Shown piece after piece: positions 12,537 to 56,947 of a stretch of 64,000 nt of DNA. Numbering within the stretch: the stretch's first letter is position 1; each line of letters starts with the position of its first letter. Position numbers and translations under genes: made by a program. The DNA is taken from positions 18,511 through 82,510 of the IMG/VR virus record IMGVR_UViG_3300007609_001486, one strand, 5' to 3'. Source of the stretch: a virus. A model generated the notes under the pieces. It searched no databases, was not told the origin of the DNA, and saw only the letters and a list, made by a program, of their open reading frames with translations.

Positions 12537-12887
12537 ATGGACCAACGACTTTCAAAAGCTCTCGAGTTTGCAAACTATTCTCTCACATTAAGCAATCAGA
12601 AAAGAATTCTGCAGGAAAAGTTCTTTGAAGACTGTTTGTATTTCGCACAAGGCAGACAGTTTACAGTTACACCAGTATTAATAAATTTTGTTTCTTTATT
12701 ATCCAAAGAATCCAGAGATAACAGTGCAATTATAATTGACGATAACAATACTCCTGTAATAATTTCTGATCTAGAATCCTTTTTGAGTGATATTCTTGAA
12801 TGTTATAGCACAGCCTCTCAAGAATATCACGATAAGTATCTAGAATTATCTAAAAAAAGAAGTGTTGAGAGCTTGATAGATGAATAA
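12537..12887 (+). CDS. Hypothetical protein
   Basis: 116 aa with strong SD. 8-nt overlap with the next gene. Confidence 0.75.
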   Translation: MDQRLSKALEFANYSLTLSNQKRILQEKFFEDCLYFAQGRQFTVTPVLINFVSLLSKESRDNSAIIIDDNNTPVIISDLESFLSDILECYSTASQEYHDKYLELSKKRSVESLIDE

Positions 12888-13719
12888 TGGCGCAATACTA
12901 GTAGCTAATAATAATGGCCAGATTGACTATGTAAAACAGGCTGTTTTTCTGTCTACTAGAATTAAGAAATATCTAGATTTACCAACTACCGTTATTACGG
13001 ATTCTCCCGAATATTTAAAAAATAAATTTGATGTGAGCAATATTGATCAAATTTTAGAGATTCCCTATGTAAACACTGACAACAAAAGATTCTATTTTGA
13101 TGGATCTACTAAACATAAAACACTAATGTTCAAAAACCAATCTAGAACATTGGCGTACTTCATGTCGCCTTATGATAAAACAATAGTGTTAGACACTGAT
13201 TTTATTGTATCAAACAGTTTGTTGAAAAATTGCTTCGACAGCCCGAACGATTTAATGATGTATAAAGAAGCCCATGATTTGGCTAATGTAAGAGATATGC
13301 ACGAATTTTCGTATGTAAGTGATAAAGGAATAGAATTCTACTGGGCTACAGTAATATATTTTCAAAAAAATAAGAAAAATGATATATTCTTTGATTTGGT
13401 ATCCTATATAGAAGATAATTGGCAGCATTATCGGAAAGTATATCAAATCAGTAACTCTATGTTTAGAAACGACTTTGCCTTTAGTATTGCAATTAATATA
13501 ATGCAAAATTTTTATCCGGATCAAAGCATAGTAACAAAACTTCCTGGTAAACACTTTTTTACAATAGACAAGGACATCTTATATAAGATTCATGACGATT
13601 ATATGATGTTTTTGGTTGAGAAAAAAGATATTATCGGCGAGTACACTCCTATTTCTACAAAGGGTTTAAATGTACATGTTATGAATAAATTTAGTTTGGA
13701 AAGGTGCATTAATGAGTAG
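12880..13719 (+). CDS. GT-A fold (GT8-like) glycosyltransferase/nucleotide-diphospho-sugar transferase
   Basis: 279 aa. 'SPYDKTIVLDTD' DxD motif and 'RNDFAFSIA'. Confidence 0.65.
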   Translation: MNNGAILVANNNGQIDYVKQAVFLSTRIKKYLDLPTTVITDSPEYLKNKFDVSNIDQILEIPYVNTDNKRFYFDGSTKHKTLMFKNQSRTLAYFMSPYDKTIVLDTDFIVSNSLLKNCFDSPNDLMMYKEAHDLANVRDMHEFSYVSDKGIEFYWATVIYFQKNKKNDIFFDLVSYIEDNWQHYRKVYQISNSMFRNDFAFSIAINIMQNFYPDQSIVTKLPGKHFFTIDKDILYKIHDDYMMFLVEKKDIIGEYTPISTKGLNVHVMNKFSLERCINE

Positions 13720-14551
13720 AGGATTTCTTGTGTTGGCGCAAGATGAAAATACATCGGAAGATAAAAAATTAAGTTATATATCTCAGGCCTGTCTTCTTGC
13801 AAAAACTTTAAAAAAACATAATGCGGAAGAAAAAATTTCTGTGGTTACAAATAACAAGATCCAGACTAAGGATTTGAAATACTTTGATAAAGTTATTTCA
13901 ATTCCGGGTAACGACGATGCAACAAGTACACAATGGAAAATAGAAAATAGGCATAAACTTTATCAGTGCACTCCTTACGATAACACAATTGTAATGGACG
14001 TTGACATGGTTGTACTTGAGGATATAAGTAGATGGTGGACCTATTTAGAAAAATATGATTTATTTTTTACATCAAATGTAAAAACATATAGACAAGAACT
14101 TGTAACGGAGGATTCTTATAGAAAGGTTTTTACTGCAAATAATCTTCCTAATATTTACACAGGATTACATTACTTTAAAAAATCTAAAACCGCAGAAGAG
14201 TTTTATAATATGTTAGAACTAATTTGCAATAATTGGAAAGTTTTTTTTGCAGAGTGTTTGCCAAAAAATACGCCACCTGTGTTGAGTATCGATGTTGCTG
14301 CCAGTTTAGCAATAAAAATTTTAGGGATAGAATCACAAGTTCTCACCCCCAAATCCAGCGTCACCTTTACGCATATGAAATCATTGATACAAAATTGGAA
14401 AACTTATTCAGGAAGCTGGCAAGATAATGTATCTCCATACATAGGACGTAACGGTGATTTAAAAATTGGCAACAGTTTACAAAAAGGTGTTTTACACTAC
14501 ACAGAAGAAACTTTCCTAGACTGTCCGGGGATAGAAAATTTACATGAATAA
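13712..14551 (+). CDS. GT-A fold (GT8-like) glycosyltransferase, paralogue of the previous gene
   Basis: 279 aa. 'TPYDNTIVMDVD' DxD motif and 'FTHMK'. Confidence 0.65.
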   Translation: MSRGFLVLAQDENTSEDKKLSYISQACLLAKTLKKHNAEEKISVVTNNKIQTKDLKYFDKVISIPGNDDATSTQWKIENRHKLYQCTPYDNTIVMDVDMVVLEDISRWWTYLEKYDLFFTSNVKTYRQELVTEDSYRKVFTANNLPNIYTGLHYFKKSKTAEEFYNMLELICNNWKVFFAECLPKNTPPVLSIDVAASLAIKILGIESQVLTPKSSVTFTHMKSLIQNWKTYSGSWQDNVSPYIGRNGDLKIGNSLQKGVLHYTEETFLDCPGIENLHE

Positions 14552-15191
14552 TTTAACAAGTGTTTTTGAAAAAATTAATAAATCGTTGAAGCAAGAAGTT
14601 ACTAACTTCGTTTATTACGATAAACAAGGAGATATCAAAAGAATATCTAATACTTTTGAAAAGGATTCTGTTCTGAAATGCATAGAAGTCCCTCATAATT
14701 TAGTAAAAAATTTAATAATTGGAAAACATAAGTTTAGTGAGTATATGGTCTCATATGATAATTCTACAAAATTATTTTCGGTTGTTAATAAAAAAATAAA
14801 ATTTCAGTCTTGTCAACTGATATATCAAATTCCTAAATTACAGTTAGACGGCACGGCTTGTAGTATTAATCAGCTCAGAGACAACAACGACATGGTAGTA
14901 ATTCAAAATCTTAAAAACAATGTATGGCAAATTTACATTTCAAAAATCATACTGGCAAATATAAAAAAATATTATAACACTGATTTAAAAAAACTTATAC
15001 ATATTAGCATTACTGAAGAAAATGATCCTCATATATTTCTAAATTATGTTGATTTACCTACTAATGGTTTTCTAGGCAACGGCCCTATCGAAATTCCTTT
15101 TACAACGTTATTAGAACAAGAAAATAATGGAGTAAGTTTATTTGTTGAGAAATATTTTGATTCATATATCCACGGAGTCCTAAATGACTAA
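14544..15191 (+). CDS. Hypothetical protein
   Basis: 215 aa, translationally coupled on both sides. Confidence 0.7.
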   Translation: MNNLTSVFEKINKSLKQEVTNFVYYDKQGDIKRISNTFEKDSVLKCIEVPHNLVKNLIIGKHKFSEYMVSYDNSTKLFSVVNKKIKFQSCQLIYQIPKLQLDGTACSINQLRDNNDMVVIQNLKNNVWQIYISKIILANIKKYYNTDLKKLIHISITEENDPHIFLNYVDLPTNGFLGNGPIEIPFTTLLEQENNGVSLFVEKYFDSYIHGVLND

Positions 15192-16827
15192 TAAAAAATT
15201 TAAAGTAATAGATTATGATATTGTTTATCTCAGTTATGACGAACCAAATGCTGAAAAAAATTATGCCGATTTGTTAACGAAAGTACCTTGGGCTAAACGT
15301 GTACACGGTGTAGAAGGTTCTGATGCAGCACATAAAGAGTGCGCTCGTGTATCAGAGACTGAGAGATTTATCACTATTGACGGGGATAATATCATAAATC
15401 CTGAATTTTTGAATCAGGAAATAGACTTTGGGGATAAACAAGGTTTAGAAAACAGTGTTATTAGTTGGGTAGGAAAAAACCAAATTAATGGACTGATGTA
15501 TGGCAACGGCGGAATAAAATGCTGGCCAAAAGACTTAGTACTAAATATGCGGACGCATGAACACGCGGATCCTAATAATCCGCATGCACAAGTAGATTTC
15601 TGTTGGGATATTGAATATATTCAGATGAATACTTGTTTTTCTGAGGTGCATAATAATGCAACCCCGCAACAAGCATGGCGAGCAGGTTTTAGAGAAGGTG
15701 TTAAGATGGCCTTAGTTGAAGGAGTAAGGCCCTCGAAAGACGAGTTCTTAAATGGACATTGGAAAAATCTTAACAGACTATGGATTTGGTTAATGGTAGG
15801 CGCTGATGTAAAAAATGGTATGTGGGCGATTTATGGAGCACGTCATGGGCTATATAAAACCATGTGTACAGATTGGGATTATGTAAATGTAAGAGACTTT
15901 GAATACCTTAATAGTTTATGGCGCGAAATAGAAACCGAATTTGACAGTGCTTCTGGAGTTTACGAAGATACTATTGCATATGGAAATATGTTGCAACAAG
16001 AGTTAGATATTCCTATTGCAAGTGAACCTCTGAATCCAGAACAAAGTATTTTCTTTAAAACTGTGTATCAGAATCCAGTCAGGACGCATGGGCAGTTTAT
16101 AAAAGAAAGTAAGTCTAATGCAACAGCTACAGAAGAATATGATATTGTAATGATTACATATGGCGAGCCTAATGCAGATGAAAATTACGAAAATCTAAAA
16201 TTAAGGTTCCCCCGTGCAAAACGTGTTGATAATGTCGAAGGAATACACAATGCACACAAAAAAGCTGCTACCATTTGTAATACAGATATGTTTTGGGTAG
16301 TAGACGGCGATGCTAAAATAAAAGAAGATTTTAATTTTGAGTATAACGTACCAGAATCTGATAAAAACACTGTACATGTCTGGCGTTGTGAGAATCCTGT
16401 AAATGGATTAATTTACGGATATGGAGGTATTAAGTTATTACCTAGACATCTTACAGAAAACATGGATACAAGCAAGCCCGATATGACCACTAGTATTAGT
16501 AGGCATTTTAAAGTCGTTAATGAACTATCTAACATTACCAGTTTTAACACAGATGAATTTAATGCATGGCGAAGTGGATTCAGAGAGTGCTGTAAGTTAG
16601 CTTCTAAGGTAATCGATAGGCAAAAGACAGACGAAACAGAAGAACGGCTCAATATCTGGTGTACAGTAGGTGCAGATAAACCGTTTGGTAATTTTGCTAT
16701 TGCTGGCGCAATTGCTGGAAGAAAATATGGCCAAGAGCACACTGGTAATATAGACGCACTTAAAAAAATAAATGATTTTGATTGGTTGAGAAGACACTAT
16801 GACGAATACTACAGAAACAACGCTTAA
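15184..16827 (+). CDS. Two-domain glycosyltransferase-like protein (internal tandem duplication)
   Basis: 547 aa. Two copies of 'YDIV...Y.EPNA..NY..L......AKRV..VEG...AHK..A....T..F...DGD...NGL.YG.GGIK...AWR.GFRE..K'. Confidence 0.65.
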   Translation: MTNKKFKVIDYDIVYLSYDEPNAEKNYADLLTKVPWAKRVHGVEGSDAAHKECARVSETERFITIDGDNIINPEFLNQEIDFGDKQGLENSVISWVGKNQINGLMYGNGGIKCWPKDLVLNMRTHEHADPNNPHAQVDFCWDIEYIQMNTCFSEVHNNATPQQAWRAGFREGVKMALVEGVRPSKDEFLNGHWKNLNRLWIWLMVGADVKNGMWAIYGARHGLYKTMCTDWDYVNVRDFEYLNSLWREIETEFDSASGVYEDTIAYGNMLQQELDIPIASEPLNPEQSIFFKTVYQNPVRTHGQFIKESKSNATATEEYDIVMITYGEPNADENYENLKLRFPRAKRVDNVEGIHNAHKKAATICNTDMFWVVDGDAKIKEDFNFEYNVPESDKNTVHVWRCENPVNGLIYGYGGIKLLPRHLTENMDTSKPDMTTSISRHFKVVNELSNITSFNTDEFNAWRSGFRECCKLASKVIDRQKTDETEERLNIWCTVGADKPFGNFAIAGAIAGRKYGQEHTGNIDALKKINDFDWLRRHYDEYYRNNA

Positions 16828-17653
16828 TTGGGTCAGAGGCCTTTCTTCATATTTTGAATATGAAGGTGATCAAGAAGCTTACAAATTTATGCAGTTTTTA
16901 GAAAAAGCAATGTATTCAGATAATCCTGTTATTGATACTACAAACCCTAGTGGAATGATTGAGTTTATTAGCATTTTGCGAAAGTTTGCTCCTAACAAAA
17001 TTTTTGATATTTTTCACAAATATTATAGGCTAGACAACGATCCGGTTGCTTTACAAGATGCTTTCAGCAGGGGACAAGTCCTAAGTAAAATTTGGATAAT
17101 ACAAGAACTAAAAAAAATAAAGGAAGGCAATTTAGGAAATATTTTAGTTTTAGCAGGATGGTTTGGCCAATTTATTTCTTATATCGATAACTTTGACTTC
17201 GATGATGCAAGAATAATCGAATTAGATAAATCTGCATGTATAGCAAGTGATAGAATATTTAACTTAGACCATATTGAAGGTCATAAAGTCAAATCTGTTT
17301 TAGCTAATATAAATAATCTTGAATTGAATAAGAACGGTTATAATTTAAATGTAAAAACATACCATTCCGATAACGACGAAGGTTATACACAACAATTTTT
17401 ACCTAATCTTATAGTTAACACTAGTTCAGAACATATGTCAGAAGAATGGTTTTTTCAGCTTAAATTTAAAGAGTTAAATTCTGATCCACTGGTAATAATA
17501 CAGTCTAACAATTTATTTGACATTGAAGAACACGTAAATTGTGTACACAGCATCGATCACATGAAGAAAAAATATCCCTTTGATCAAATTTTGTACGAAG
17601 GCGAATTAGAACTTTATGGATATAAAAGATTTATGTTAATAGGAAGACCATGA
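16799..17653 (+). CDS. Class I SAM-dependent methyltransferase-like protein
   Basis: 284 aa. 'ILVLAGWFG' motif I, acidic 'IELD' and 'IVNTSSEH'. Confidence 0.6.
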   Translation: MTNTTETTLNWVRGLSSYFEYEGDQEAYKFMQFLEKAMYSDNPVIDTTNPSGMIEFISILRKFAPNKIFDIFHKYYRLDNDPVALQDAFSRGQVLSKIWIIQELKKIKEGNLGNILVLAGWFGQFISYIDNFDFDDARIIELDKSACIASDRIFNLDHIEGHKVKSVLANINNLELNKNGYNLNVKTYHSDNDEGYTQQFLPNLIVNTSSEHMSEEWFFQLKFKELNSDPLVIIQSNNLFDIEEHVNCVHSIDHMKKKYPFDQILYEGELELYGYKRFMLIGRP

Positions 17654-17877
17654 AATTAGATAATCTTACACTGCGGGAACTGCAAAAAGAAAGTGCCAGG
17701 GCATTAAGCACGATGCAGGCGACAAATAATAACATTTATCAATTTAACAAAGAAGCCCATCATAATAGTCACAATTGGTACAAAGCAGTAATAAAATGGT
17801 ATGTAGCCCAATATGGAGATTTACCAAGCAATATTGGACCTGGTAAAGATATTCAATTAATAGCAGGTGAAAAATGA
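17650..17877 (+). CDS. Small hypothetical protein (75 aa)
   Basis: ATGA overlaps at both ends, with an AGGA SD. Confidence 0.7.
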   Translation: MKLDNLTLRELQKESARALSTMQATNNNIYQFNKEAHHNSHNWYKAVIKWYVAQYGDLPSNIGPGKDIQLIAGEK

Positions 17878-18599
17878 ATAAAAAGACAATTGCTGTTATA
17901 GGTTGTAGCTTTAGTCTTCATAGACACAAATATGATACAAAGGTATGGCCCCAACTCCTTGCAGAACGTGTGTCCCCGCAAATAATAGTAAAAAATTTTT
18001 CAATGTTTTGTAACAGTGTGTCTAACCAGTGTCTACAAGCATTGGAAATTGTTAAATCTAAACCAGATTTAATTATAATCCAGTGGACCACAGATGGTCG
18101 TGTTACCTTTATAGAGGACGCAAACAAGTATAAGCATTTTTTATCCAGCAAAAAATACATGCGAGAATACTCGAAAGGATATTACGAGTATGATAGAAAT
18201 TATTTAGTTACCAAAGAGCAAAAAGCAAAAGGAAATTTTGATAATTACTGTATTCATTTCAATCCTGCAGATTTAGAATTGTATAAAAATAAATTTATAG
18301 ATACATACCAAACTATGTTACTGCACGGAGTAGGACCTTTAGGCGAATTCTCTGATAGATATTCTTATCTGCTTAAATCTTCTATTGCACACGAATGTAA
18401 AGAAAATGAGATAGGCTTGATAATGTTTGATTTCTTGGATAGATATCGTAATTGTCAAACACAGCACCTGGATTTCGTTGCAGAGAGAGAAATAGTTGAT
18501 TTTCCTAAAAAAGTTGTAGATACAGGGTTTCATTTAGGTCAAGATGGTCATAAAGAATTATCTAAAATTATGTATCCAAAAGTTAACAAGTTTATTTAG
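17874..18599 (+). CDS. SGNH/GDSL hydrolase-like protein
   Basis: 'IAVIGCSFS' block I and C-terminal 'DTGFHLGQDGH' block V. Confidence 0.55.
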   Translation: MNKKTIAVIGCSFSLHRHKYDTKVWPQLLAERVSPQIIVKNFSMFCNSVSNQCLQALEIVKSKPDLIIIQWTTDGRVTFIEDANKYKHFLSSKKYMREYSKGYYEYDRNYLVTKEQKAKGNFDNYCIHFNPADLELYKNKFIDTYQTMLLHGVGPLGEFSDRYSYLLKSSIAHECKENEIGLIMFDFLDRYRNCQTQHLDFVAEREIVDFPKKVVDTGFHLGQDGHKELSKIMYPKVNKFI

Positions 18600-18607
18600 G
18601 TTCTATA

Positions 18608-19564
18608 ATGAAGAAATTAAAAGTAGAAAGAGCATCTATAGAAATTTTTGGTGGCTGTAACTATAAATGCGTAATGTGTCCCCAGTCGAAAGGAAGGGGC
18701 TCGTCGTGGACTCGGAAAATGCCATTACCACATTTTGTAAAATTGCTCGATCAATTAGACGGCAATCCTCTTATACAATTAGAAGGTTCGGGAGAAGCGT
18801 TTCTTGCAAAAGACTTAGATTTATATATTGCTGAATGTTCTAAAAGAAATATGAAAACATTCGTTAAAACAAATGGCTCTTTCAACACAACTCTTATGGA
18901 TAAATGTCTAAAAGCGGGGTTGACGTACATCAGATTTAGCGTAATAGGGCATGACAGACTTTCATATAAGAAAAATATGTCTGTTGATAACTTTGACTTG
19001 ATCATGGATAATATAACATATTGTATTGATCAAATAAGAAAAAAGCATTACAATTGCGAAATTAGCATATATCACATTTTATTGTCTTCTGATGACGAGG
19101 AACTCCAAAAATATAAAACAATAGCAAAAAAACTAAACTGTAAATCATATGTTTGGAAAATGCACAATTGGAGCGGTAACATTGATAGTAAAAATAGAAA
19201 AATTGTTAATAAGCGCAGAACTTGTGGCCGACCTTTTGCTAATGAAATTACAATTAGAGCAGGAGGAGAACCGGGCAGATATGGTGCGGTAACACCCTGC
19301 GCACAAACACTAGGACCGCCCAATGAGACAAAGAGTGTATTAGGATATTCTGACAAAGAAAGTTTACATGATATATGGAATGGAGCTTTATACAACGAAC
19401 TAAGAGAAAAACATCTCAAGGAAGACTTTGATAATATAGATTATTGTAAAAAATGTGACTTTTTATATGATGATCCTGACGTGTTAGTTTGGACAAATGA
19501 TGAGGCTACCGATGTAGGTGATATACAAGGGACTAGCCTAAATTTATTAAGGCATTTAAAATGA
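18608..19564 (+). CDS. Radical SAM protein with C-terminal SPASM/twitch domain
   Basis: CNYKCVMC, GSGE and TNG motifs. C-terminal CGRPF...PC...CKKC. Confidence 0.9.
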   Translation: MKKLKVERASIEIFGGCNYKCVMCPQSKGRGSSWTRKMPLPHFVKLLDQLDGNPLIQLEGSGEAFLAKDLDLYIAECSKRNMKTFVKTNGSFNTTLMDKCLKAGLTYIRFSVIGHDRLSYKKNMSVDNFDLIMDNITYCIDQIRKKHYNCEISIYHILLSSDDEELQKYKTIAKKLNCKSYVWKMHNWSGNIDSKNRKIVNKRRTCGRPFANEITIRAGGEPGRYGAVTPCAQTLGPPNETKSVLGYSDKESLHDIWNGALYNELREKHLKEDFDNIDYCKKCDFLYDDPDVLVWTNDEATDVGDIQGTSLNLLRHLK

Positions 19565-20511
19565 AACTTGACCGAGACATATCCGACTTACCTCGTTTAC
19601 CCAACGAAGCATACGAATGCTTCAAAAATTATTTCTTTTATTACTTACCAAAATACCCCACTAGAAATATCTTAAAACAAGCGTTATGGGATCCAAACAG
19701 AGTGCCCGAATATGCTGAGCCTCACCGTTATTTAAATTTGGATTATAAAATGATGAAATTTTATCATACAGTGCCGGCGATAAAAAGTTATGCAGAACAA
19801 TTGTGGTTTTTAGTTTCAAGCATAGATCAAAAAGGAATACAAAGTCCATTATGTTCGGAGAATCTTAAAACTTTCCATCCTGGGGGTAAAAGGTATGCAA
19901 TTGCAGGTTATTTAGATATTCCCACAATGCCTGTACTTTTACAATCAACCAAAAAAATTCAAGAATATAACAGTCGGCAATTGCATCATTTATTTGAAAT
20001 TACAAATTTATATAATAATCAGTGTAGTATGAAAGTTAGAAAAGACACTGGTGCCTTGGAAGTTTCTTGGCATGGCGAAACTTCAATGCGTGACAATAAT
20101 GGTTATGATGATTGGAGGAAAAAAGCAGACAATGTGCTATCAAATACGAATACGAATACAAATTTTAACATACCAAAGTTTTTGCTACAAAACGGACTAG
20201 ATGTTGTTAATAAATTTAGGGTAGGAACAAAAATTGACGGTATTTTTAAGACAAATTATTGTAGGAAATCTAATAGCCCTATCAAAATTATAATTGATGA
20301 TATCAAGTATATTGATTTAGATTTGTGGGAGCTATATTTTCATATAGATCCCACTGTGCATTTGAAGGTAGATAAATCAAGTTACATACAGATTGTAAAT
20401 GAAATTGCTTCTAAAGACATTGTTTATAATAACTGTAGATTATTAGAAACATTAACTAGAAAAAAAATTTTTACAGCAGAGACTGTGTTACTAAACAGAA
20501 AAGGCAGATAA
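19561..20511 (+). CDS. Hypothetical protein, possible ParB/sulfiredoxin-like N-terminal domain
   Basis: 316 aa. 'SIDQKGIQSPL...HPGGKRYAIA.YL....MPV' resembles the ParB-N G..R motif. Confidence 0.35.
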   Translation: MKLDRDISDLPRLPNEAYECFKNYFFYYLPKYPTRNILKQALWDPNRVPEYAEPHRYLNLDYKMMKFYHTVPAIKSYAEQLWFLVSSIDQKGIQSPLCSENLKTFHPGGKRYAIAGYLDIPTMPVLLQSTKKIQEYNSRQLHHLFEITNLYNNQCSMKVRKDTGALEVSWHGETSMRDNNGYDDWRKKADNVLSNTNTNTNFNIPKFLLQNGLDVVNKFRVGTKIDGIFKTNYCRKSNSPIKIIIDDIKYIDLDLWELYFHIDPTVHLKVDKSSYIQIVNEIASKDIVYNNCRLLETLTRKKIFTAETVLLNRKGR

Positions 20512-22819: not shown

Positions 22820-22840
22820 AAAAATAATTTCCTTAAATAC

Positions 22841-22869
22841 TTGACCTAAATATTTATAAAGTGTATTAT
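22841..22869 (+). promoter_or_regulatory. Sigma70-type promoter TTGACC-N17-TATTAT
   Basis: 5/6 and 5/6 hexamer matches with 17 nt spacer, just upstream of ATG 22876. Confidence 0.55.
22851..22858 (-). promoter_or_regulatory. T4-late-type promoter TATAAATA
   Basis: Perfect consensus on the - strand, 31 nt upstream of the 22819 start, with an AAGGA SD. Confidence 0.65.
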
Positions 22870-22875
22870 AGTGTA

Positions 22876-23953: not shown

Positions 23954-23969
23954 CATACTGATGTATAAA

Positions 23970-46574: not shown

Positions 46575-46601
46575 AATTTTTATACTGATGTTATTTAAAT
46601 T

Positions 46602-46645
46602 TATTTATCATAAAATATGATACCAAAAAAAAAATTTTATAAATA
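46602..46645. promoter_or_regulatory. Divergent late-type promoters: GATAAATA (- strand, 46602-46609) and TATAAATA (+ strand, 46638-46645)
   Basis: The + motif is a perfect consensus 5 nt before ATG 46651. The - motif precedes the 46574 start. Confidence 0.6.
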
Positions 46646-46650
46646 TCACT

Positions 46651-47265: not shown

Positions 47266-47285
47266 TTTTTATTATAGGAAAATAG

Positions 47286-48833: not shown

Positions 48834-49474
48834 ATATCAGGCAACGGATCTTCAGGCCATTTTACATATTCTGTAAGACTGTGTTTATTAAGAATAGAAA
48901 AATCTACTTTACCGTCTGGCCAAACACTATTAATAAATTTAGATCTTTCTTCGTTTAGAATAGGTCTATAAAGATTTATATCAATAGGCTGTTCTTCGTA
49001 ATCACAAGTAGTATAAAATGCAAATGCTTTTAATTTATCTTCTTTAATAAAGTGATAACACGGATACATAGTTATTTTATACACTTCGTTTATTTTTATA
49101 TCTAAAACTATCTGTTGTAGTTGTTCCTTCCAATCAGGTAAAATATTTGATAAATCAGCACCATTTACTATTGTTTGCTCGCAACATTCTATATTCCATT
49201 CTATGTAGATTTCTCTTTTGCTGGTATCTACATCTATTAAATTAGCACACCATGGATATTTATTAAATTTTTTAAGATATTTTATTTCTCTTGTAAAACA
49301 ATCGTTAATTAATTCGTTGCTTACCGGTTTATTCCTAAATTTACTATCGGGATCGAATCTCATGCAGAGAATTTTTTGGTCTAAACTTACTAAAGGTTCG
49401 TATAATGCTCCAGTTTTCCAGCGTTTGTTGCTCTGATCTGTCACATAGTAGTGTTGCCAATCAGTAGTGTTCAA
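48803..49474 (-). CDS. Protein kinase-like fold protein (degenerate catalytic motifs)
   Basis: REIKYL...LPDWKEQL...VYKITMYP...LKAFAFY. Paralogous to 50297. Confidence 0.4.
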   Translation of the reverse strand: MNTTDWQHYYVTDQSNKRWKTGALYEPLVSLDQKILCMRFDPDSKFRNKPVSNELINDCFTREIKYLKKFNKYPWCANLIDVDTSKREIYIEWNIECCEQTIVNGADLSNILPDWKEQLQQIVLDIKINEVYKITMYPCYHFIKEDKLKAFAFYTTCDYEEQPIDINLYRPILNEERSKFINSVWPDGKVDFSILNKHSLTEYVKWPEDPLPDIYRKIYLDNH

Positions 49475-50270
49475 TATGATCTATACCTATGGTCTTCCTA
49501 AATTCTTTTGTAAACGTGCAATCGATTCGTAATCCGTATTCTTGTTCTTTAGAACCTTCTCCGCCGTGCCAGTCTTGATCGTTCCAGAAAGCTGCATTAC
49601 AGTTTAGATAGTATTTGTTCTCATTTTCTGGATCCCATATGTAGAATCCGCGTTTAGTTCGATATCGAATATGTATAAATTCGTTGTTATGTGGAGAATA
49701 ACCTTGATTGTCACCGTTCTTACCATCAAGATCTCTGTGTTCAAATGCATGCCCGTTATGATCGCAATGAAAGAATATAACACGCCCGATACTGTCAATA
49801 ACATTTTCCTCAATAAGATTCTCTACCCATTTGACTACGCCTGGAAAATGTTCCTGTTCTTCGGTGGGGTTGCGTTCAGCATTGCGTTCGTCCCAACTAC
49901 CTTCTTCCCAAAGAAAATAGTATATGTAAGGATCGTTTGCACCCAACGCACCTTTGAGATATCTTGTAAATAAGTTCCTTTGACGATAATCTTTGAAGTC
50001 TTGAGGAAATATTGTTTGTCCATGTATTTTAATTGGGTCATTTTCCGGCAATGCTTGATATTCTGCAAATGCCTTATATATAGGCTTCCAGTTCAAAGTA
50101 TAACTCATATCATTTAAGTCAAAGCCTGGACTCATCCAAGTCCCTTCTTTGGCATATTCCCTCGCCAGTGCAAATCCTTTACATATTTCAGGATGAAGAT
50201 TTTTGAAACCCTCAATGTCGAGATGTGGATCTAAATTTATATACGGCCTACCGCCAATTCCTTTAAACAT
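49461..50270 (-). CDS. Fe(II)/2OG-type oxygenase-like protein
   Basis: GRVIFF...AFEHRD...WHGG...LRID. Start reassigned to ATG 50270. Confidence 0.55.
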   Translation of the reverse strand: MFKGIGGRPYINLDPHLDIEGFKNLHPEICKGFALAREYAKEGTWMSPGFDLNDMSYTLNWKPIYKAFAEYQALPENDPIKIHGQTIFPQDFKDYRQRNLFTRYLKGALGANDPYIYYFLWEEGSWDERNAERNPTEEQEHFPGVVKWVENLIEENVIDSIGRVIFFHCDHNGHAFEHRDLDGKNGDNQGYSPHNNEFIHIRYRTKRGFYIWDPENENKYYLNCNAAFWNDQDWHGGEGSKEQEYGLRIDCTFTKEFRKTIGIDHIEHY

Positions 50271-50275
50271 ATTAA

Positions 50276-50292
50276 TAGTTATCAAATAAGTA
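50276..50292. promoter_or_regulatory. Back-to-back late-like motifs: GATAACTA (- strand, 50276-50283) and AATAAGTA (+ strand, 50285-50292)
   Basis: 5 nt and 4 nt before ATG 50270 (-) and ATG 50297 (+). No SD sequences. Confidence 0.45.
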
Positions 50293-50296
50293 CCAT

Positions 50297-50992
50297 ATGC
50301 AAAATAACTTTGAATATTATTACAATAACGTGCCAGGTGAAGGTAAATGTAGAAATAATCTTATCTATACAAGCCTTATCAATAACAAACAAAACAAATT
50401 TATACAATGGTACTACAATGACTCTGAATATCACCAAGGAAAAAATGAAGTTGTTGATCCTGAATTAATGGAATCAAAATGGAATAGAGAAATAAACAAT
50501 TTAATGTACATAGACAGAGAAGGGTATGGAAATTATCTTCCTAGTTTTGAAATTGACCGAGACCAAAAGCAGATAATTTTAGATATACAAGGTCCAGATT
50601 TTTGGGAACAAAGTGGATGTCTTACTGAAAACTTTGACAAGATTCTGCCAGACTGGCAGGAGCAAATGCTCGAAATATTTAAAATGCATAAAGATTTAGG
50701 AATTTATAAATTTAGTTTGCATCCAAGTAGCTATTTTATTATAAACAATGAATTAAAAAGTATAAATTATTTTTTTGCTTATCACGAAAATGAAGAAAAA
50801 ATAAACGTGAGAAGCCATTTGTCACATATTAGCTCTAAGCGCAGAGAAAAGTTATTCCCTCAAATGGAAGCCATGGGCATAGATTTAGATGAACCACAAG
50901 AATGGGTGCCGTTGCAAATTTTGTGCTTTGAAAGCTTTTCAAATAACTATTCAAAAGATTTTATTAACAAGGCAAAAGCATTGTATGTATAA
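50297..50992 (+). CDS. Protein kinase-like fold protein (degenerate catalytic motifs)
   Basis: REINNL...LPDWQEQM...IYKFSLHPSSYFI...LKSINYF. Confidence 0.4.
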   Translation: MQNNFEYYYNNVPGEGKCRNNLIYTSLINNKQNKFIQWYYNDSEYHQGKNEVVDPELMESKWNREINNLMYIDREGYGNYLPSFEIDRDQKQIILDIQGPDFWEQSGCLTENFDKILPDWQEQMLEIFKMHKDLGIYKFSLHPSSYFIINNELKSINYFFAYHENEEKINVRSHLSHISSKRREKLFPQMEAMGIDLDEPQEWVPLQILCFESFSNNYSKDFINKAKALYV

Positions 50993-51539
50993 AGTTGTGC
51001 CTTTTTCAGATGATCTAGATCTAGAATTATTCTACAAGAAAGCCAAAGAAAAAGGATTCGAAAATAATTCAACTAAACATATGTTAGTTGACTGTTTTAA
51101 AAATGAAAGAAAATCCCAGACTTGGATACTTTACTACGATAATAGTCCTATCGGATCTGTGGCAGCCCATTCATTTGACGAAATGGGGAAAAATTGCTAT
51201 AGAATAGCGGCCAGAACCTGTGCTTTTACAGATGAAATACCTACTCCTACGTTAAGAACAAGAAATCAAATAGTAACGCAACAGCACGTAACAGGACAAT
51301 TCCTTATACCTGCTTGTATTGAATGGGCAGGCAGGAAAAATAATCTTTATATTACTTCAAATAATCTTGAAGGCGGCAGTCAGCGTCTGGTACATACAGT
51401 ATATTTTCCAGCAATGGTAAAAACGGGGCAAGCTGAACATATTTGTGATATGTTATACAGAGGTGTTATGCAAAGCGTATGGAAACTAAATGTCGATAAG
51501 TACTATGAAGTATTAGGAAAAAATCCAAGATGGCAATAA
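50985..51539 (+). CDS. GNAT-like acyltransferase
   Basis: 'WILYYDNSPIGSVA...YRIAAR...LIPACIEWA...LYIT.N' fits GNAT topology. Start reassigned to ATG 50985. Confidence 0.5.
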   Translation: MYKVVPFSDDLDLELFYKKAKEKGFENNSTKHMLVDCFKNERKSQTWILYYDNSPIGSVAAHSFDEMGKNCYRIAARTCAFTDEIPTPTLRTRNQIVTQQHVTGQFLIPACIEWAGRKNNLYITSNNLEGGSQRLVHTVYFPAMVKTGQAEHICDMLYRGVMQSVWKLNVDKYYEVLGKNPRWQ

Positions 51540-52666
51540 TTAAACAAATAACAAAGTTTTTACAATCATTTAAAGATAGAAAGTTGAAAGACACAGTAGC
51601 CCTTTGTGAAAATTGTTACAGACATTTGCCTGCTAGAACCTTTCAACGAGAGGACTCTATATGGTTATCAAAAGAATGTCCAGAGCACGGGTATAAAGAA
51701 TACATTATAGAAAAAGATGCGGATTTTTATCATAAGTTAGATTATGATACCCATGCTTATGATATTCCAGCAGGAATAATGGTCGAAGTTACAGACAAAT
51801 GTAATCTTAACTGTCCGCATTGTTATCATGAACCAGAAAATAAAACCACAGATAAACCAATTGATGATATATTAAAACAAATACAACAATGGCCTGACGG
51901 TGCAGGAAGCGTTATATTAGCAGGAGCCGAGCCTACTGTAAGAAAAGATTTGCCCGAATTGATATCCGAAATAAAGTCTTTGCAAGACCAATTAGGTCGA
52001 ACACATCAGGATATCAGCATTCTAACTAATGGTGTCAAATTCCATGATAAAAAATGGGTTAAACAAATTAAGGATGCAGGTTGCCGTGCGGTTATGATAG
52101 GATTAAATCATCCTTCATACCAGGGCGAAAAAGTTCATCAAAAGCAATTACAAGGTATAAGAAACTGCAAGGAAGCAGGTATCTTTGTTTATTATGTAGG
52201 GTATACGATAGAATCCTATGATCACTTACCATTTGTATTAAAAGAAATACAGGAATTGGGAGATACTGCATTTCAGTATAGGATTAGAGCAGGAAGCGAT
52301 ATTGGCAGAAATCCAGATGAACCTAGAGTTTTTCTCAGTGATAATGTTAAAGAAATTAAAGAATTAGTTGAGCAATACGGATGGGACTGGGAAAAAATTC
52401 CAGGGGATGATAACCTTTATCATTATATGGTAAACATAAATGGTATTACCCATAGGATTATTCAGTGGAGTGATGCCAAAACATTAGATCTCGAAGAAAT
52501 AAGATGTGGTCCCTGGTGTGACTTTGTCCCTGGCAAACCTATTTCAAATTTCTTACATCAAGTAATGTTGCGAGATTATGCTATAAATCAAAATAGAATA
52601 CTGTTTGATACAGTGCCTGAAAGATATACATTCAGAACAAGAGACCAAGTAAGGAAGGAACACTAA
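51530..52666 (+). CDS. Radical SAM protein with N-terminal rubredoxin-like CxxC...CPEHG domain (MJ0619/Tes-like N-terminus)
   Basis: LCENC...KECPEHG, then EVTDKCNLNCPHC, AGAEPT and TNG. Confidence 0.8.
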   Translation: MAIIKQITKFLQSFKDRKLKDTVALCENCYRHLPARTFQREDSIWLSKECPEHGYKEYIIEKDADFYHKLDYDTHAYDIPAGIMVEVTDKCNLNCPHCYHEPENKTTDKPIDDILKQIQQWPDGAGSVILAGAEPTVRKDLPELISEIKSLQDQLGRTHQDISILTNGVKFHDKKWVKQIKDAGCRAVMIGLNHPSYQGEKVHQKQLQGIRNCKEAGIFVYYVGYTIESYDHLPFVLKEIQELGDTAFQYRIRAGSDIGRNPDEPRVFLSDNVKEIKELVEQYGWDWEKIPGDDNLYHYMVNINGITHRIIQWSDAKTLDLEEIRCGPWCDFVPGKPISNFLHQVMLRDYAINQNRILFDTVPERYTFRTRDQVRKEH

Positions 52667-53694: not shown

Positions 53695-55314
53695 ATGTTC
53701 CAAGTTGTATTATTTACCGATGCTCCTTATCCCCATCATCGGATTCGTGGTTATGGAGTCCACAGAATTGCTAGCGAAATAAGAGCCAACGGGTATACCT
53801 GTTTAGTAGTAGATTTTAGTTCTGCATTAACATTTGAAAAATATAAAGAATTAATAGATAATGCAGTTGGACCTCAAACTCTAATGATAGGGTTTTCTAC
53901 CACTTGGCTTCCTTATCGTCTTCCTAATCAAGAAGGATATACAAACGAGATTCCCGGACATCGCATCGGAGATGATAATAGATTATCCAGCGATAAAGTA
54001 GAAAAACATAACTGGAGGACCGAAAATATGGTTGCACAGTTTGGAAAAGCTGAAGTCGACGAATGGTTACTCTATCCCAAAAAACTCAATCCCAGCGTAA
54101 AGGTTGTTTTAGGAGGTGCAAAAACAGATTTTTATATGGATTTACCTCATGTCGATAATTTTATCTTCGGTATTGCTGAAACTATGACTATAGATTATCT
54201 TAACAGTTTAAGCGGAAAAGGACCTGCTAAGATTTTTAACAAGTATATTGATTATGATCGCAAAGCACACAGACCTACCTGGGATTTTAGAGAAAGTCAA
54301 ACACAATACACAGAATGGGATTTCATACAACCTCAAGAAACACTTAATCTAGAAGTAGGACGTGGTTGCCGTTTTAAATGTGCATTTTGTAACTTTCCGC
54401 TCATTGGCCAAAAAAACGTAAACGATTACTTAAAATATCCGGAAAATATCAAAGACGAATTGCAAAAAAATTACGAACTCTGGGGTACCACAAAATATTT
54501 TATTGTAGACGACACGTTTAATGATAGCACAGAAAAATTAGAAATGTTGTGTAAGGTTATGGACGAGTTACCATTTGATATAAAATTTTGGTGCTACACT
54601 CGTGTTGATTTATTAGCGGCCAAACCCGAACAAATAGAATTAATGAAACATCTAGGTGTAGCAGAAACCTTCTTCGGTTTAGAAACATTTAATGATAAAA
54701 GTTCTCGCACTATCGGTAAAGGAATGCCATCTAGCAAAAGAAAAGATACTTTATATAAAGCAAAAGAAATCTGGGGAGAACGTGTGTGGATGGAAGGCGG
54801 ATTTATGATAGGTCTACCCTATGAAACCAGACAAAGTTGGAGAGACACTGTTGATTGGTTAAAGCGAGATGATTGTCCCTTAGATATATTTACATGTTAT
54901 CCTTTGAATATTACAAAAAAGACCGAACGAAATCAATGGTTCCCCCTTAGTTGGTTTGATGAAAATTATGAAAAGTTTGGTTATTACTTTCCTATTGAAG
55001 ACAACACTCTTGATGGTCTACTATATTGGGAAAAACAAGACGACACCGATATAGGTAATTTTTTTGAAGCCGCAAACATAGCAGAAGAAACAACAAAAGA
55101 ATTACAACCCTATCAAAACATTAGACGCGGCGATTTCTATGTAAGTTCTTTTAATGATTATAGGTTTCGTGACCGAGAAAAAACATTAGACATGTCTGTT
55201 ATAGAATATAAAAAACTTATAGATGGTGTTGATTTTGAGCAATTGTACTATAATACAGTAACAAAGGATTATTTCGATAAATTATTTAATAAATTAAAGG
55301 GGAAAAATGTTTAA
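53695..55314 (+). CDS. Cobalamin-binding (class B) radical SAM protein
   Basis: B12-domain pattern (G...IAS.IR..GY...VVD, IGFSTT, VVLGG), RGCRFKCAFC, DDTF, GLET and MIGLPYET. Confidence 0.85.
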   Translation: MFQVVLFTDAPYPHHRIRGYGVHRIASEIRANGYTCLVVDFSSALTFEKYKELIDNAVGPQTLMIGFSTTWLPYRLPNQEGYTNEIPGHRIGDDNRLSSDKVEKHNWRTENMVAQFGKAEVDEWLLYPKKLNPSVKVVLGGAKTDFYMDLPHVDNFIFGIAETMTIDYLNSLSGKGPAKIFNKYIDYDRKAHRPTWDFRESQTQYTEWDFIQPQETLNLEVGRGCRFKCAFCNFPLIGQKNVNDYLKYPENIKDELQKNYELWGTTKYFIVDDTFNDSTEKLEMLCKVMDELPFDIKFWCYTRVDLLAAKPEQIELMKHLGVAETFFGLETFNDKSSRTIGKGMPSSKRKDTLYKAKEIWGERVWMEGGFMIGLPYETRQSWRDTVDWLKRDDCPLDIFTCYPLNITKKTERNQWFPLSWFDENYEKFGYYFPIEDNTLDGLLYWEKQDDTDIGNFFEAANIAEETTKELQPYQNIRRGDFYVSSFNDYRFRDREKTLDMSVIEYKKLIDGVDFEQLYYNTVTKDYFDKLFNKLKGKNV

Positions 55315-56947
55315 CGTAATATTATTTACAGACACTCCCGAAATGAATTCGCGGACAAGGGGTTACGGTGTTCACAGATTAGCTACGCATATAAGAAATG
55401 AAGGATATAGTTGTTTAGTGGTTGATTTTATGTCAGGTCTTACATTAAGCGATTACAAAAAAATTTGTGATTATGCTGTAGGAAACCAAACACTTATGAT
55501 AGGAGTATCACTAACATGGCTTCCTTATAGATTGGGATCTAATGAGTCAGGAGAAAATAAATTACAAACCCATGACCCCGGACGCGACATTCAAAACGGA
55601 ATTAAAGATAAGATTATAAACAAGGAATATGGGTATTTTTCAAATAAAATGAATTTGGCAATTTCAAATAATGATGTTGATCCTTGGTTCGACTATGTAA
55701 AGAAATTGAATCCAAATATAAAAATTTGCCTAGGTGGTTCTAAAATAGGAATGTATTTAGATATAAAAATGGTGGATCATTTTTTTGTAGGGTATTCTGA
55801 AACAATGTTAACTGATTATTTAGATAGTCTAAGCGGAAAGAAAGAGGGAATAATATGGAATAGAATTATTGACTATGATCCAAAAGCACAAAAACCAGTT
55901 TGGGATTTCACTTTAAGCCGAACGCAATACACAGAATTTGATTTAATTCAGTCTCAAGAGCCCCTATCATTAGAAGTAGGCCGAGGTTGCCGTTTTAAAT
56001 GTAAATTTTGCTCGTATCCTCTAATCGGAATGAAAAATATAAATTCTTATATAAAAAAATCGGATAATTTACGCGACGAACTTATTGATAACTATGAAAA
56101 ACACGGGACTACAAGGTATTTTATCATTGATGATACATTTAACGATAGCTTAGAAAAAGTAGAATATTTTTTAAACGTTGTAAAAAGCTTGCCGTTCAGA
56201 ATATATTATTGGTGTTATTTACGATTAGACTTGTTGGCGGCATTCCCTAAAATGATACCAATGTTGAAAGAATCAGGAATGATACAATGTTACTTTGGTA
56301 TAGAAACATTTAATGTAAAAGCTGGTAGATCTGTAGGGAAAGGTGGTAGACCAGATAAGCTGAAAGAAACCCTATATAAATGTAAAGAAATTTGGGGAGG
56401 AGAAGTTAGCATTCAGGCCGGCTTTATCGTAGGATTGCCTCACGAAGATTCGGAATCAATAATGAATACTGCTATGTGGTTAGCACGGCCAGATTGTCCA
56501 ATAGATATTAAATGGATTGTCCCTTTGAGTATTGGCGGTCCTAGTGAAGTAATGAAATATACATACACAAGTGAGTTCGACAGGAATTTTGAAAAATATG
56601 GATACAGCTTTCCTAATCCCGCCGAATTTTGGAAGTGGCAAAAACAAGATGGAACAGATATTACGTCAAGTGAAATTGCTGAAGATATATCGAAAAAAGC
56701 AGAGACTTTTTTGCAAAACAAGACATTTACAAAGGACTTAAATACTGCTAGTTTACCCCATCATGTATTATCTGATATAGAACTCACTGGATCAATGACT
56801 GCGGAAGATTATACACGCATAGTGCAAACAATTGATATACCTGAACTCTATCAAAGATCAGTCAAGATAGATTATTTTACAGAATTAATTGAAAAATTAC
56901 GCATAAAGCGGAATATATTTAGTAGTTCCGTTGACAGAGACTTCTAA
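55307..56947 (+). CDS. Cobalamin-binding (class B) radical SAM protein, tandem paralogue
   Basis: Same architecture: RGCRFKCKFC, DDTF, GIET and IVGLPHED. Confidence 0.85.
   Translation: MFNVILFTDTPEMNSRTRGYGVHRLATHIRNEGYSCLVVDFMSGLTLSDYKKICDYAVGNQTLMIGVSLTWLPYRLGSNESGENKLQTHDPGRDIQNGIKDKIINKEYGYFSNKMNLAISNNDVDPWFDYVKKLNPNIKICLGGSKIGMYLDIKMVDHFFVGYSETMLTDYLDSLSGKKEGIIWNRIIDYDPKAQKPVWDFTLSRTQYTEFDLIQSQEPLSLEVGRGCRFKCKFCSYPLIGMKNINSYIKKSDNLRDELIDNYEKHGTTRYFIIDDTFNDSLEKVEYFLNVVKSLPFRIYYWCYLRLDLLAAFPKMIPMLKESGMIQCYFGIETFNVKAGRSVGKGGRPDKLKETLYKCKEIWGGEVSIQAGFIVGLPHEDSESIMNTAMWLARPDCPIDIKWIVPLSIGGPSEVMKYTYTSEFDRNFEKYGYSFPNPAEFWKWQKQDGTDITSSEIAEDISKKAETFLQNKTFTKDLNTASLPHHVLSDIELTGSMTAEDYTRIVQTIDIPELYQRSVKIDYFTELIEKLRIKRNIFSSSVDRDF

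Follow-up and report, generated by a model that had tools for sequence, protein, structure and literature searches.

Why would a phage gather sixteen genes for radical S-adenosylmethionine (SAM) enzymes beside its tail fibres, and on what would their products act? The question is raised by a linear viral contig of 82.5 kb (IMG/VR record IMGVR_UViG_3300007609_001486), of which we analysed bases 18511-82510, a stretch of 64,000 nucleotides that we call the window and to whose positions coordinates refer unless another record is named. CheckV puts the completeness of the contig at 23%, implying a genome of roughly 355 kb. Positions 12537-56947 form an island of about 44 kb with 49 open reading frames (ORFs), 99.5% coding and with a GC content of 0.34 against 0.40 in the remaining contig. 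An earlier note on this DNA had described some 50 tightly packed genes between tail-fibre genes, and that description is borne out, with Collar and Peptidase_G2 domains to the left of the island and Mtd_N to its right. The answer that we favour, at a probability of roughly one in three, is that the island is a gene set for building a glycan in the cytoplasm and tailoring it by radical chemistry, that it occupies a fixed, fast-changing tail-fibre site, and that its glycan is carried by virion proteins. ORFs are named below by their left-hand window coordinate, followed by (-) where they lie on the minus strand.

Searches of Pfam, NCBIfam, PDB profiles and structures gave a firm assignment for 29 of the 49 ORFs, a weak one for 4 and a lead for 1; the Pfam scans took in 48 island ORFs and 18 flanking ORFs. 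The firm set holds 16 radical SAM genes (one of them split), three genes for glycosyltransferases (GTs) of the GT-A fold, three 2-oxoglutarate (2OG) oxygenases, two halogenases, one methyltransferase, a class III aminotransferase, an amidinotransferase and a SAM decarboxylase (AdoMetDC). The sixteen radical SAM genes counted in the earlier note are matched by Pfam Radical_SAM hits in 16 ORFs, 14 above the curated cut-off and 2 below it, the latter being clear paralogues of others, and each of the 16 has one CxxxCxxC motif; these are the only Radical_SAM matches in the whole contig. BLAST sorts them into groups A (6), B (3), C (3) and D (2) and two singletons. Thirteen form an array at 18608..36109, on both strands, that draws on four paralogue groups: group A, of 414-470 aa with an N-terminal twitch domain (21545(-), 23983, 26208, 28715, 32620 and 34844(-)); group B (20511, 22861+23429 and 31611); group C (27517, 30503 and 33958(-)); and group E (18608). 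The remaining three are the group D pair of about 540 aa at 53695..56947 (53695 and 55307, both on the plus strand and 48% identical to each other) and, at 51530..52666 on the plus strand, an enzyme with an N-terminal zinc ribbon of the HMPTM/Tes/TrsS-like kind (Radical_SAM at 76 bits plus Zn_ribbon_HMPTM). Identities are 21-48% within groups and 21-36% across the four groups of the array, and DNA repeats within the window amount to short coding motifs and nothing further, so that the copies are old; the paralogues have also been kept intact. One group B gene (22861-23953) is broken by a frameshift near 23487-23500, beside an A8 run, into a core part and a SPASM part. Among the relatives listed, the 12 closest have it as one ORF, 348-364 aa long. 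The 23429 part is matched by 67 ORFs of relatives, of which 66 match the 22861 part too; the split may reflect slippage, a true pseudogene or a mistake in the assembly.

The largest group belongs to a family with an unusual layout. NF033640 (N_Twi_rSAM) is matched over its full length by 23983 (417 bits) and 32620 (379 bits) at a cut-off of 170; the NCBIfam scan for it covered these two members, and 21545(-), 26208, 28715 and 34844(-) were placed by BLAST paralogy and alignment. Across 11 aligned sequences C10, C91 and C94 are invariant and C28 nearly so, all of them preceding C147/C151/C154, and profile positions 4-70 match residues 185-256 of BtrN, its twitch domain (E = 4e-4). The auxiliary Cys-rich (twitch) domain of group A thus lies N-terminal to the radical SAM core. 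NF033640 is a catalogue entry, and the literature searched, in its titles and the openings of its abstracts, describes no function for it. Among solved proteins, group B comes closest to the sugar enzyme BlsE (E = 3.4e-9) and group C to anSME (E = 2.5e-4). For group D, 53695 was scanned against NCBIfam and 55307 placed by its identity to it; 53695 resembles the vitamin B12-class families PhpK (5.5e-25), lipid B12/radical SAM and HpnJ, all under cut-off, and Pfam reports Radical_SAM and no B12-binding domain in either protein. By similarity, group D falls in the B12-binding/radical SAM class. The NCBIfam matches of 51530, TrsS (1e-27) and Tes (2e-25), are both far under their cut-offs.

The genes at the left end of the island point to what the radical SAM enzymes may act on. 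The first (12537..12887, plus strand) encodes a 116-aa protein that matches no Pfam or NCBIfam family and has homologues in 14 of the 80 related loci discussed below, in a related 256-kb record that is 72% complete (G001), and in the cultured Ralstonia phage RsoM2USA (MG752970.1, 344 kb). It is followed on the same strand by a paralogous pair, 12880 and 13712 (12880..14551), predicted to be retaining-type GT-A enzymes of the GT6/GT8-like kind. The residues of their DxD motif (D105 and D107) are invariant across 15 aligned sequences, their profile matches glycogenin in PDB (E = 1e-4), and the AlphaFold2 (AF2) model of 12880 (pLDDT 90.3) retrieves ABO transferases, alpha-1,3-galactosyltransferase (alpha3GalT) and glycogenin in Foldseek (E = 2.5e-6 to 8e-6, probability 1.00). 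A 215-aa protein without a family (14544..15191, plus strand), with a G001 homologue at 25%, separates the pair from 15184 (15184..16827, plus strand), which carries an internal duplication and is modelled as a tandem of two GT-A domains (AF2, pLDDT 89.5). The 15184 model matches the K4CP chondroitin polymerase (7e-7), LH3, LARGE1, PmHS2, ppGalNAcT and SunS/ThuS in Foldseek, as well as the protein-glycosylating GT-As A64R of PBCV-1 and R699 of mimivirus; its PDB profile search and its Pfam and NCBIfam scans were empty. Many relatives encode the two domains in separate genes, which in G001 lie about 18 kb apart, and in two relatives, locus L030 and RsoM2USA, a single radical SAM gene of the N-twitch type stands between the two halves. 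Split or inserted forms can be seen at L030:1757-4681 and L180:14058-17102. By fold and DxD motif, then, the island encodes four GT-A domains, with transfer activity predicted, in the three GT-like genes that the earlier note had picked out. Next comes 16799 (16799..17653, plus strand), a weak lead to a methyltransferase fold: Spermine_synth is matched under cut-off (E = 0.008, Pfam), Methyltransf_31 clusters are its structure-atlas lead, and a PDB profile search gave no match. It is nonetheless a core gene held in common with bacteria, with homologues in 73 of 80 related phage loci and in Bdellovibrionota (30-33%). The 75-aa Cys-free product of 17650..17877 (plus strand) is conserved in the phage lineage, being 73% identical in G001, where it lies directly upstream of a 20511-type radical SAM gene; tblastn gives 75 matches in phage loci, conserved over the full length at a median identity of 75%, and in the bacterial clusters only 4 matches, at chance level.

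How this module fares in related phages tells core from accessory. Scanning viral contigs with 23983 gave 262 relatives, the best 80 of the 262 at 84-90% identity. A protein collection contains 2800 proteins at E <= 1e-10; those listed, 120 in number, are 81-90% identical and come from contigs of up to 353,636 bases, among them some of 322-354 kb, and some of the entries bear Tara labels. Among the best 80 loci 15184 recurs in 69, 16799 in 73, 20511 in 79 (median identity 65%), 23983 in all 80 (86%) and 30503 in 57 (87%), and between these anchors lie differing radical SAM paralogues. In each of five long related records 8-19 Radical_SAM matches were counted, all of them free of internal stops. 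G001 is syntenic with the contig, and its island (136442-192761, 56 kb, GC 0.328 versus 0.363) sits between the same fibre-like genes. Of 46 island ORFs compared with G001 (all save 36002, 50889 and the AdoMetDC gene 52663(-)), 24 find a match there at E <= 1e-5 and 7 reach 45% identity or above; no match was obtained for the halogenases, aminotransferase, methyltransferase, oxygenase cluster, zinc-ribbon radical SAM enzyme or group D pair. In all 9 loci that extend far enough to the left to be informative, some of which are near-duplicates, the genes directly upstream of the 12537 homologue are fibre-like, and the linkage recurs in G001 and RsoM2USA. The earlier note had asked for such a synteny comparison and named scattered, unlinked genes in relatives as a refutation; what we find is conserved linkage to tail genes with variable content. 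We therefore describe a lineage of ~355-kb phages that, to judge from these alignments, bears an island at the same site with a conserved core and a variable remainder. The conserved unit comprises GTs, radical SAM enzymes and the methyltransferase-like protein, and the remainder is accessory. The nearest cultured kin are jumbo phages, namely RsoM2USA and, through a flanking ATPase, the PA5oct group, and not the T4-like cyanophages to which the island had first been compared. Among cultured phages, tblastn of 15184 found RsoM2USA alone (E = 3e-79); 23983 found 3 phage records only, at 22% identity, 30503 found none, and megablast of 12537-37000 and of 57000-64000 matched no cultured phage.

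The same core is also found outside phages. An alignment of group A, searched against one genome per species, found 79 loci, mostly in Bdellovibrionota, and in four bacterial loci the phage core occurs together: homologues of 23983 (60-62%), 30503 (64-66%), 20511 (41-45%), 26208 (31-48%), the 15184 halves (40-45%) and 16799 (30-33%). On a 936-kb Bdellovibrionota contig (L132/L173-L174) the cluster has 23983 at 60%, 30503 at 66%, 20511 at 43%, 26208 at 48%, a GT-A half at 40% and 16799 at 33%, and adds homologues of 27517 (40%), 29944 (42%), 25376 and 53695. Its GC content of 0.451, between flanks of 0.464 and 0.415, is that of native DNA. The GT8-like pair, the 75-aa protein and the fibre genes were not found in the Bdellovibrionota clusters. 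Five such bacterial genomes hold 19-22 NF033640 matches each, partly in tandem rows. A FastTree phylogeny of 72 of 300 group A sequences interleaves phage and bacterial rows, and well-supported branches force at least 8 label changes, so that the paralogue types seem to predate the transfers; the deep joins of this tree are uncertain, and it has branches flagged as long. A phage-like array (23983 at 53%, 30503 at 72%) also occurs on a Chloroflexota-binned contig (L122), whose genes group with phage orthologues in the tree; L122 may be a mis-binned phage contig.

What, then, is the substrate? Genes that neighbour the core give a further indication. Each of two Pfam neighbour tallies, phage and bacterial, shows the 25 commonest families without ORF identity. 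Among relatives' ORFs with no homologue in the window (114 representatives of 349), the phage tally has Asp_Arg_Hydrox 3, FkbM 2, Sulfotransfer_2 2 and B12-binding 2, and single matches to carbamoyltransferase, NAD epimerase/GDP-mannose dehydratase, UDP-glucose dehydrogenase and cytidylyltransferase. Among non-radical-SAM neighbours in 54 bacterial loci (145 scanned of 325) it is Glycos_transf_2 5, GDSL 5, carbamoyltransferase 3, short-chain dehydrogenase/reductase (SDR) 2, Gly_transf_sug 2 and Caps_synth 2. Peptide-maturation families are absent from the 25 commonest in either tally, and both appear to point to carbohydrates despite the small numbers. Taken together, the conserved unit of GTs, radical SAM enzymes and methyltransferase-like protein, the fold evidence and these tallies make a carbohydrate the most likely substrate. 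The earlier suggestion of a GT-built glycan is thus the best supported of those on offer, given the four GT-A domains, the radical SAM gene between GT-A halves in two relatives and the sugar families in related islands.

It might be objected that radical SAM enzymes, 2OG hydroxylases, halogenases and B12-class methylases modify proteins or peptides directly, either in the manner of proteusins and other peptides made on ribosomes and modified after translation (RiPPs) or by thioether or carbon-carbon cross-links in virion proteins, with sugars added by the GTs as side decoration. The sub-threshold NCBIfam matches are mainly to the peptide maturases PapB, SkfB, YhhB and CefB, and SkfB and anSME also rank high among the matches to solved proteins; proteins are the substrates of the Asp/Asn beta-hydroxylase family; and the peptide glycosyltransferases SunS and ThuS are among the GT-A fold matches. 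Formation of protein thioether cross-links by a SPASM radical SAM enzyme is described in the portion consulted of a 2026 report (PMC13692751). Against this, the scanned island ORFs contain no PqqD/RRE (RiPP recognition element) domain and none of the peptidase and transporter families that, with PqqD, are hallmarks of RiPP clusters; a coding density of 99.5% leaves no room for a hidden precursor gene; the neighbouring structural proteins are almost free of Cys (0-0.8%); and the single radical SAM gene of the RsoM2USA module sits between GT genes. The 75-aa ORF was considered as a precursor and rejected, being Cys-free, conserved over its full length, the sole small ORF and absent from the bacterial clusters. 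We regard direct protein modification as rather unlikely, though not negligible, given that the SPASM/twitch enzymes studied so far serve peptides for the most part.

If a glycan is made, the next question is where it goes. No convincing membrane span was found in the 49 island ORFs, whose products are all predicted to be soluble, so that the acceptor would have to be reachable in the cytoplasm. The flanking genes supply candidates. The left edge of the window (1..3936, plus strand) encodes the C-terminal 1311 aa of a giant protein of 4692 aa, whose whole ORF lies in the contig and which is 42% identical to its G001 counterpart and matches the RsoM2USA locus at 21-27%. It is a distant relative of ORF361 of RsoM2USA (2541 aa), a protein detected in virions by mass spectrometry according to the part of that phage's description that we consulted (PMC8504454). 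In our experience the 4692-aa ORF is among the largest phage proteins called. Between it and the island lies a tail-fibre module (3962..12491, plus strand) of six genes: 3962 (204 aa); 4576, 6930 and 8834, which have common N-termini, with Collar in 4576 and Peptidase_G2 in 8834 (Pfam); and the paralogues 10365 and 11520. The module is syntenic in G001 at 28-72% identity. The right border is formed by a fibre-like protein with Mtd_N (56897..58135, minus strand; Pfam), which has a homologue at the right border of the G001 island; Mtd_N is found at the N-terminus of Mtd, the tropism determinant of Bordetella phage. Seven neighbouring structural proteins contain 0-0.8% Cys and lack Gly-X-Y runs; collagen-like or Cys-rich fibre targets, which we had considered, were not found among them. 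Virion proteins are favoured as acceptors because the linkage to fibre genes has been kept from RsoM2USA to this lineage and because there are viral precedents for GT-As that decorate virions.

The same glycan could instead be destined for another acceptor: a host envelope molecule, such as the lipopolysaccharide (LPS) core at the inner membrane face, or a soluble glycoconjugate at lysis, and so alter the surface of the infected cell in superinfection exclusion or receptor masking. We regard this as a possibility to be taken seriously, though not a probable one. LPS-core transferases are found among GT8-type enzymes. In Bdellovibrionota the homologous core forms a chromosomal cluster, and hence a cellular pathway, and ORFs with 3-4 hydrophobic segments occur in that cluster. 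G001 carries in its island a 429-aa polytopic membrane protein with 9 hydrophobic segments (G001 187613-188902, or L090:7613-8902), and a TctA-family transporter match was tallied among the relatives' ORFs. Receptor-modifying genes beside receptor-binding genes would explain the linkage to fibres equally well, and early expression would fit the promoter. This promoter is of the sigma-70 type (12488..12516, plus strand; TTGACA, 17 nt, TGnTATACT, with extended -10) and lies in a 45-nt gap before 12537; it matches 11 of 12 consensus positions, the best match in a 16-kb scan. Of 10 distinct related phage loci, 8 have a TTGAC -35 box and a TATA-type -10 box ahead of their 12537 homologue, with varying spacer sequence; RsoM2USA lacks them. 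T4-late boxes (TATAAATA) are not enriched in the window (7 matches versus 9.9 expected); four of the seven (22851, 36136, 46638 and 58163) are found at strand switches, no more than about 35 nt upstream of a gene. Against an envelope acceptor, neither a membrane protein nor a flippase, polymerase, ligase or exporter is encoded in the island, which also showed no lipid-carrier transferase, and the lineage is without a known host, so that no envelope target can be named.

Among the remaining tailoring genes are several that recall antibiotic biosynthesis, and a soluble product resembling an aminoglycoside or aminocyclitol, made by oxidation, transamination, amidination, glycosylation and methylation, has to be considered. 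The segment 40516..43812 (both strands) holds an SDR-like gene (40516), a 139-aa ORF without a family (41120), an amidinotransferase (41536) and a class III aminotransferase (42568(-); Aminotran_3, E = 1e-41, Pfam). A profile built from 41536 and three relatives aligns with StrB1 (1bwd) across profile positions 3-347 (E = 2.5e-71), which vindicates the earlier call of an amidinotransferase; H341 and C342 are invariant in the 4 sequences, and this C-terminal His-Cys presumably represents the active-site residues of the StrB1/AGAT family. StrB1, its closest match, acts on inosamine phosphate, and the class III aminotransferase, the BtrN-like twitch domain, the BlsE-like group B, the GTs and the sub-threshold similarity of the B12-class enzymes to AprD4 and PhpK all fit such a product. 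Yet the 48 scanned ORFs contain no cyclitol synthase, resistance gene or exporter (E <= 0.01), and the nonribosomal peptide synthetase, polyketide synthase and transporter families that the earlier note had listed as lacking are indeed absent from them. The aminotransferase, halogenases and B12-class pair are missing from G001, which marks them as accessories and not core, and only GTs, the methyltransferase-like gene and radical SAM genes are conserved from RsoM2USA to bacteria. A small molecule of this kind seems to us unlikely.

Still less probable, and in our judgement very improbable, is hypermodification of phage DNA with glycosylated or otherwise decorated bases, which the earlier note had listed among its alternatives. 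The promoter is of an early type, genes of PP-loop-like and AdoMetDC-family kind are present, and phage GTs that decorate DNA are known from the consulted part of another study (10.1101/2023.12.21.572611). Scans of the island found no DNA methyltransferase and no TET/JBP, thymidylate-synthase-family or DpdA/transglycosylase family, however, and a thymidylate synthase family occurs in just 1 of 5 related records (all fragments), far from the island; a TET/JBP search found nothing, but its positive controls went undetected too, which leaves it uninformative. That the core is chromosomal in bacteria argues against this reading as well.

According to the reading that we prefer, a glycan on virion proteins, the four GT-A domains (two GT6/GT8-like, the others in one tandem) would assemble an oligo- or polysaccharide from host nucleotide sugars. 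The radical SAM trio 20511, 23983 and 30503, together with the methyltransferase-like 16799, would then edit this glycan, and a variable set could edit it further: ten radical SAM enzymes of the auxiliary-cluster kind, the two of B12 class and the one with a zinc ribbon, along with 2OG oxygenases, SDR-like proteins, the aminotransferase, the amidinotransferase, the methyltransferase and the halogenases. Plausibly, C-H abstraction would open the way to oxidation, epimerisation, deoxygenation, decarboxylation or C-methylation, and amination and amidination would come after. The phage's own virion proteins, whether fibres or the giant structural protein, would receive the product, which would vary in step with them; the absence of any membrane protein, lipid-carrier enzyme or exporter from the island, and its lasting linkage to fibre genes, suggest this placement.

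A number of observations weigh against this reading. No product, acceptor or transcript has been seen. The Bdellovibrionota core is chromosomal, with housekeeping flanks and no phage structural genes nearby (the one cluster checked, on the 936-kb contig, is preceded by rho, prfA, prmC, an EPSP-synthase-family (murA-type) gene, a TPR protein gene and serS); the chemistry is thus not specific to virions, and the pathway can do without one. The conserved promoter suggests that the unmodified polymerase of the host transcribes the island; expression need not then coincide with that of the late virion genes, and simple co-transcription with them is a poor fit. Most characterised SPASM/twitch radical SAM enzymes mature peptides or proteins, and the nearest solved proteins to group A are GDGT-MAS, which is a lipid enzyme, an unnamed radical SAM protein, SkfB and anSME. 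The amidinotransferases in the match list of 41536 all act on small molecules. Foldseek TM scores are low for 12880 (0.34-0.49) and only 0.16-0.22 for 15184, the latter because its two domains are oriented differently from those of its matches; the sugar-family tallies are small (5/145 and 1-2/114); and 15 of the 49 ORFs are without assignment, so that the earlier description of nearly all the genes as tailoring enzymes outruns the assignments.

A bolder version of the glycan reading, speculative and rather unlikely to our minds, would see in the island an exchangeable kit common to the widespread ~355-kb phages and the predatory Bdellovibrionota, in which a glycan laid down by GT-As is rewritten by a changing battery of radical SAM enzymes of old and distinct types, a chemistry for which no precedent on sugars has been described. 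The phage product would sit on the fibres and diversify with them, a "glycan code" used by two killers of bacteria at the surface that faces the prey.

The remainder of the island is less readily placed. At 36002..39153 (plus strand) lies an oxygenase cluster in which 36002 and 38440 belong to the Asp/Asn beta-hydroxylase family (Asp_Arg_Hydrox, Pfam) and 36808, 37353 and 37883 are unassigned, the PDB profile search of 36808/37353 being empty. With 45936(-) (2OG-FeII_Oxy_5) these make three Pfam-supported 2OG-type oxygenases of the eight once proposed, the other five having no tool support. The next gene (39128..40540, plus strand) encodes a 470-aa protein without a Pfam or NCBIfam family and with a weak GT-A lead, its rows in the structure atlas being Fringe and GT2 (TM 0.37-0.40). 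In 43838..48833 (both strands; Pfam) a 202-aa unassigned ORF (43838(-)) is followed by the two halogenases, 44455(-) and 47286 (Trp_halogenase, PF04820; E = 7e-88 and 1e-88), the oxygenase 45936(-) and a class-I methyltransferase (46651). Both halogenases, the class III aminotransferase and the SAM decarboxylase of the earlier note thereby gain Pfam support; of its two methyltransferases 46651 stands and 16799 is the weak lead described above. Four ORFs at 48803..51539 (both strands) match no Pfam or NCBIfam family, namely the paralogues 48803(-) and 50297, together with 49461(-) and 50889; the profile of the paralogues and 49461(-) have no PDB match, and no match was found for the two kinase-like genes or the GNAT protein once proposed. 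The AdoMetDC-family gene is at 52663-53097 (minus strand; AdoMet_dc, E = 7e-16). Two ORFs have been called SGNH-like, a 231-aa one with a GDS motif (52989-53684, minus strand) and a 241-aa one without a Pfam or NCBIfam family (17874..18599, plus strand), in each case from a motif read by eye and with no family match; GDS-type and HxD...H-type motifs among the unassigned ORFs are visible by eye only. Interspersed in the radical SAM array are 19561 (no family), 25376 (PP-loop-like) and 29944 (SDR-like); for 29944, 40516 and 25376, the two SDRs and the QueC-like ATPase of the earlier note, NCBIfam matches are sub-threshold. Pfam and NCBIfam gave nothing for 15 island ORFs. Beyond the right border, at 59733..62219 (minus strand; Pfam), lie two backbone genes for a DUF2201/VWA protein and a MoxR-type AAA ATPase, 68% and 79% identical in G001, and the ATPase shares 49.7% identity with its PA5oct-group counterpart. 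No RNA run containing the island is listed, and the single DNA run listed is possibly the island's own source; this sole public run is labelled soil metagenome, and close orthologues bear Tara Oceans labels.

Sixteen radical SAM genes in one phage island go far beyond any described pathway that we found. What is new here is the synteny of the whole island, the GT folds, the housekeeping flanks in bacteria, the minimal module of RsoM2USA and the promoter. Together they offer handles on the system: enzymes built around GTs, the same core in predatory bacteria, and a version with one radical SAM gene in a culturable phage, where it can be asked directly whether a twitch-first radical SAM enzyme acts on sugar or protein and whether giant phages glycosylate their fibres. 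Should the glycan reading prove true, radical chemistry would be added to viral glycobiology and a hypervariable region beside host-range genes would be explained; should it fail, the island would still be a large, conserved source of enzyme chemistry.

The literature searched yielded no prior description of the island or of this lineage's radical SAM array. The nearest item in print is the radical SAM set of the Campylobacter phages CP220 and CPt10, which have 11 and 12 such genes; an interchangeable module contains five of them, and the part of the report consulted assigns them no function (PMC2853527). They are not close kin, as tblastn with 23983 and 30503 found no Campylobacter phage, and that part of the report, unlike our analysis of the island, describes no GT core (PMC2853527). 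The "Moraphages", considered as kin, were set aside: to judge by the consulted part of their description they belong to a different lineage, with predicted Bacteroidota hosts, and that part does not mention radical SAM (PMC12619734). Aminoglycoside pathways share enzyme classes with the island (BtrN, StrB1, BlsE, AprD4 and class III aminotransferases), but the island lacks the scaffold synthase, resistance and export genes of their clusters (Pfam, 48 ORFs), and all matches except that of the amidinotransferase are far under family cut-offs. The chondroitin polymerase of E. coli K4, PmHS2 and LARGE1 have two GT-A domains per chain, as 15184 does, and are its best Foldseek matches, at 7-12% identity and TM 0.16-0.22; polymerising activity is known for them, and for 15184 the likeness is one of fold only. 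Viruses that glycosylate their own virions include PBCV-1 with A64R, mimivirus with the R699 cluster, and mycobacteriophages with virion glycans, with GT-A genes beside structural genes as in the island; virion glycosylation is established in those viruses and is predicted from the genes here. None of these systems is known to include radical SAM enzymes.

The most instructive comparison is with RsoM2USA, whose ORF347-354 follow the order of the island's start: a homologue of 12537 (30%), two GT8-like genes (35-36%), a 184-aa ORF that does not match 14544 but occupies the same place, the N-terminal GT-A half (45%), one N-twitch radical SAM gene (ORF349, 26% to 32620), the C-terminal GT-A half (42%) and a methyltransferase-like gene (26%). 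All eight are annotated as hypothetical, and the consulted portion of the RsoM2USA paper mentions neither radical SAM nor glycosyltransferase (PMC8504454). Where the island has 16 radical SAM genes this module has 1, and the other tailoring genes are absent there; yet it adjoins ORF361 and a fibre-like gene just as the island adjoins the giant protein and the fibres.

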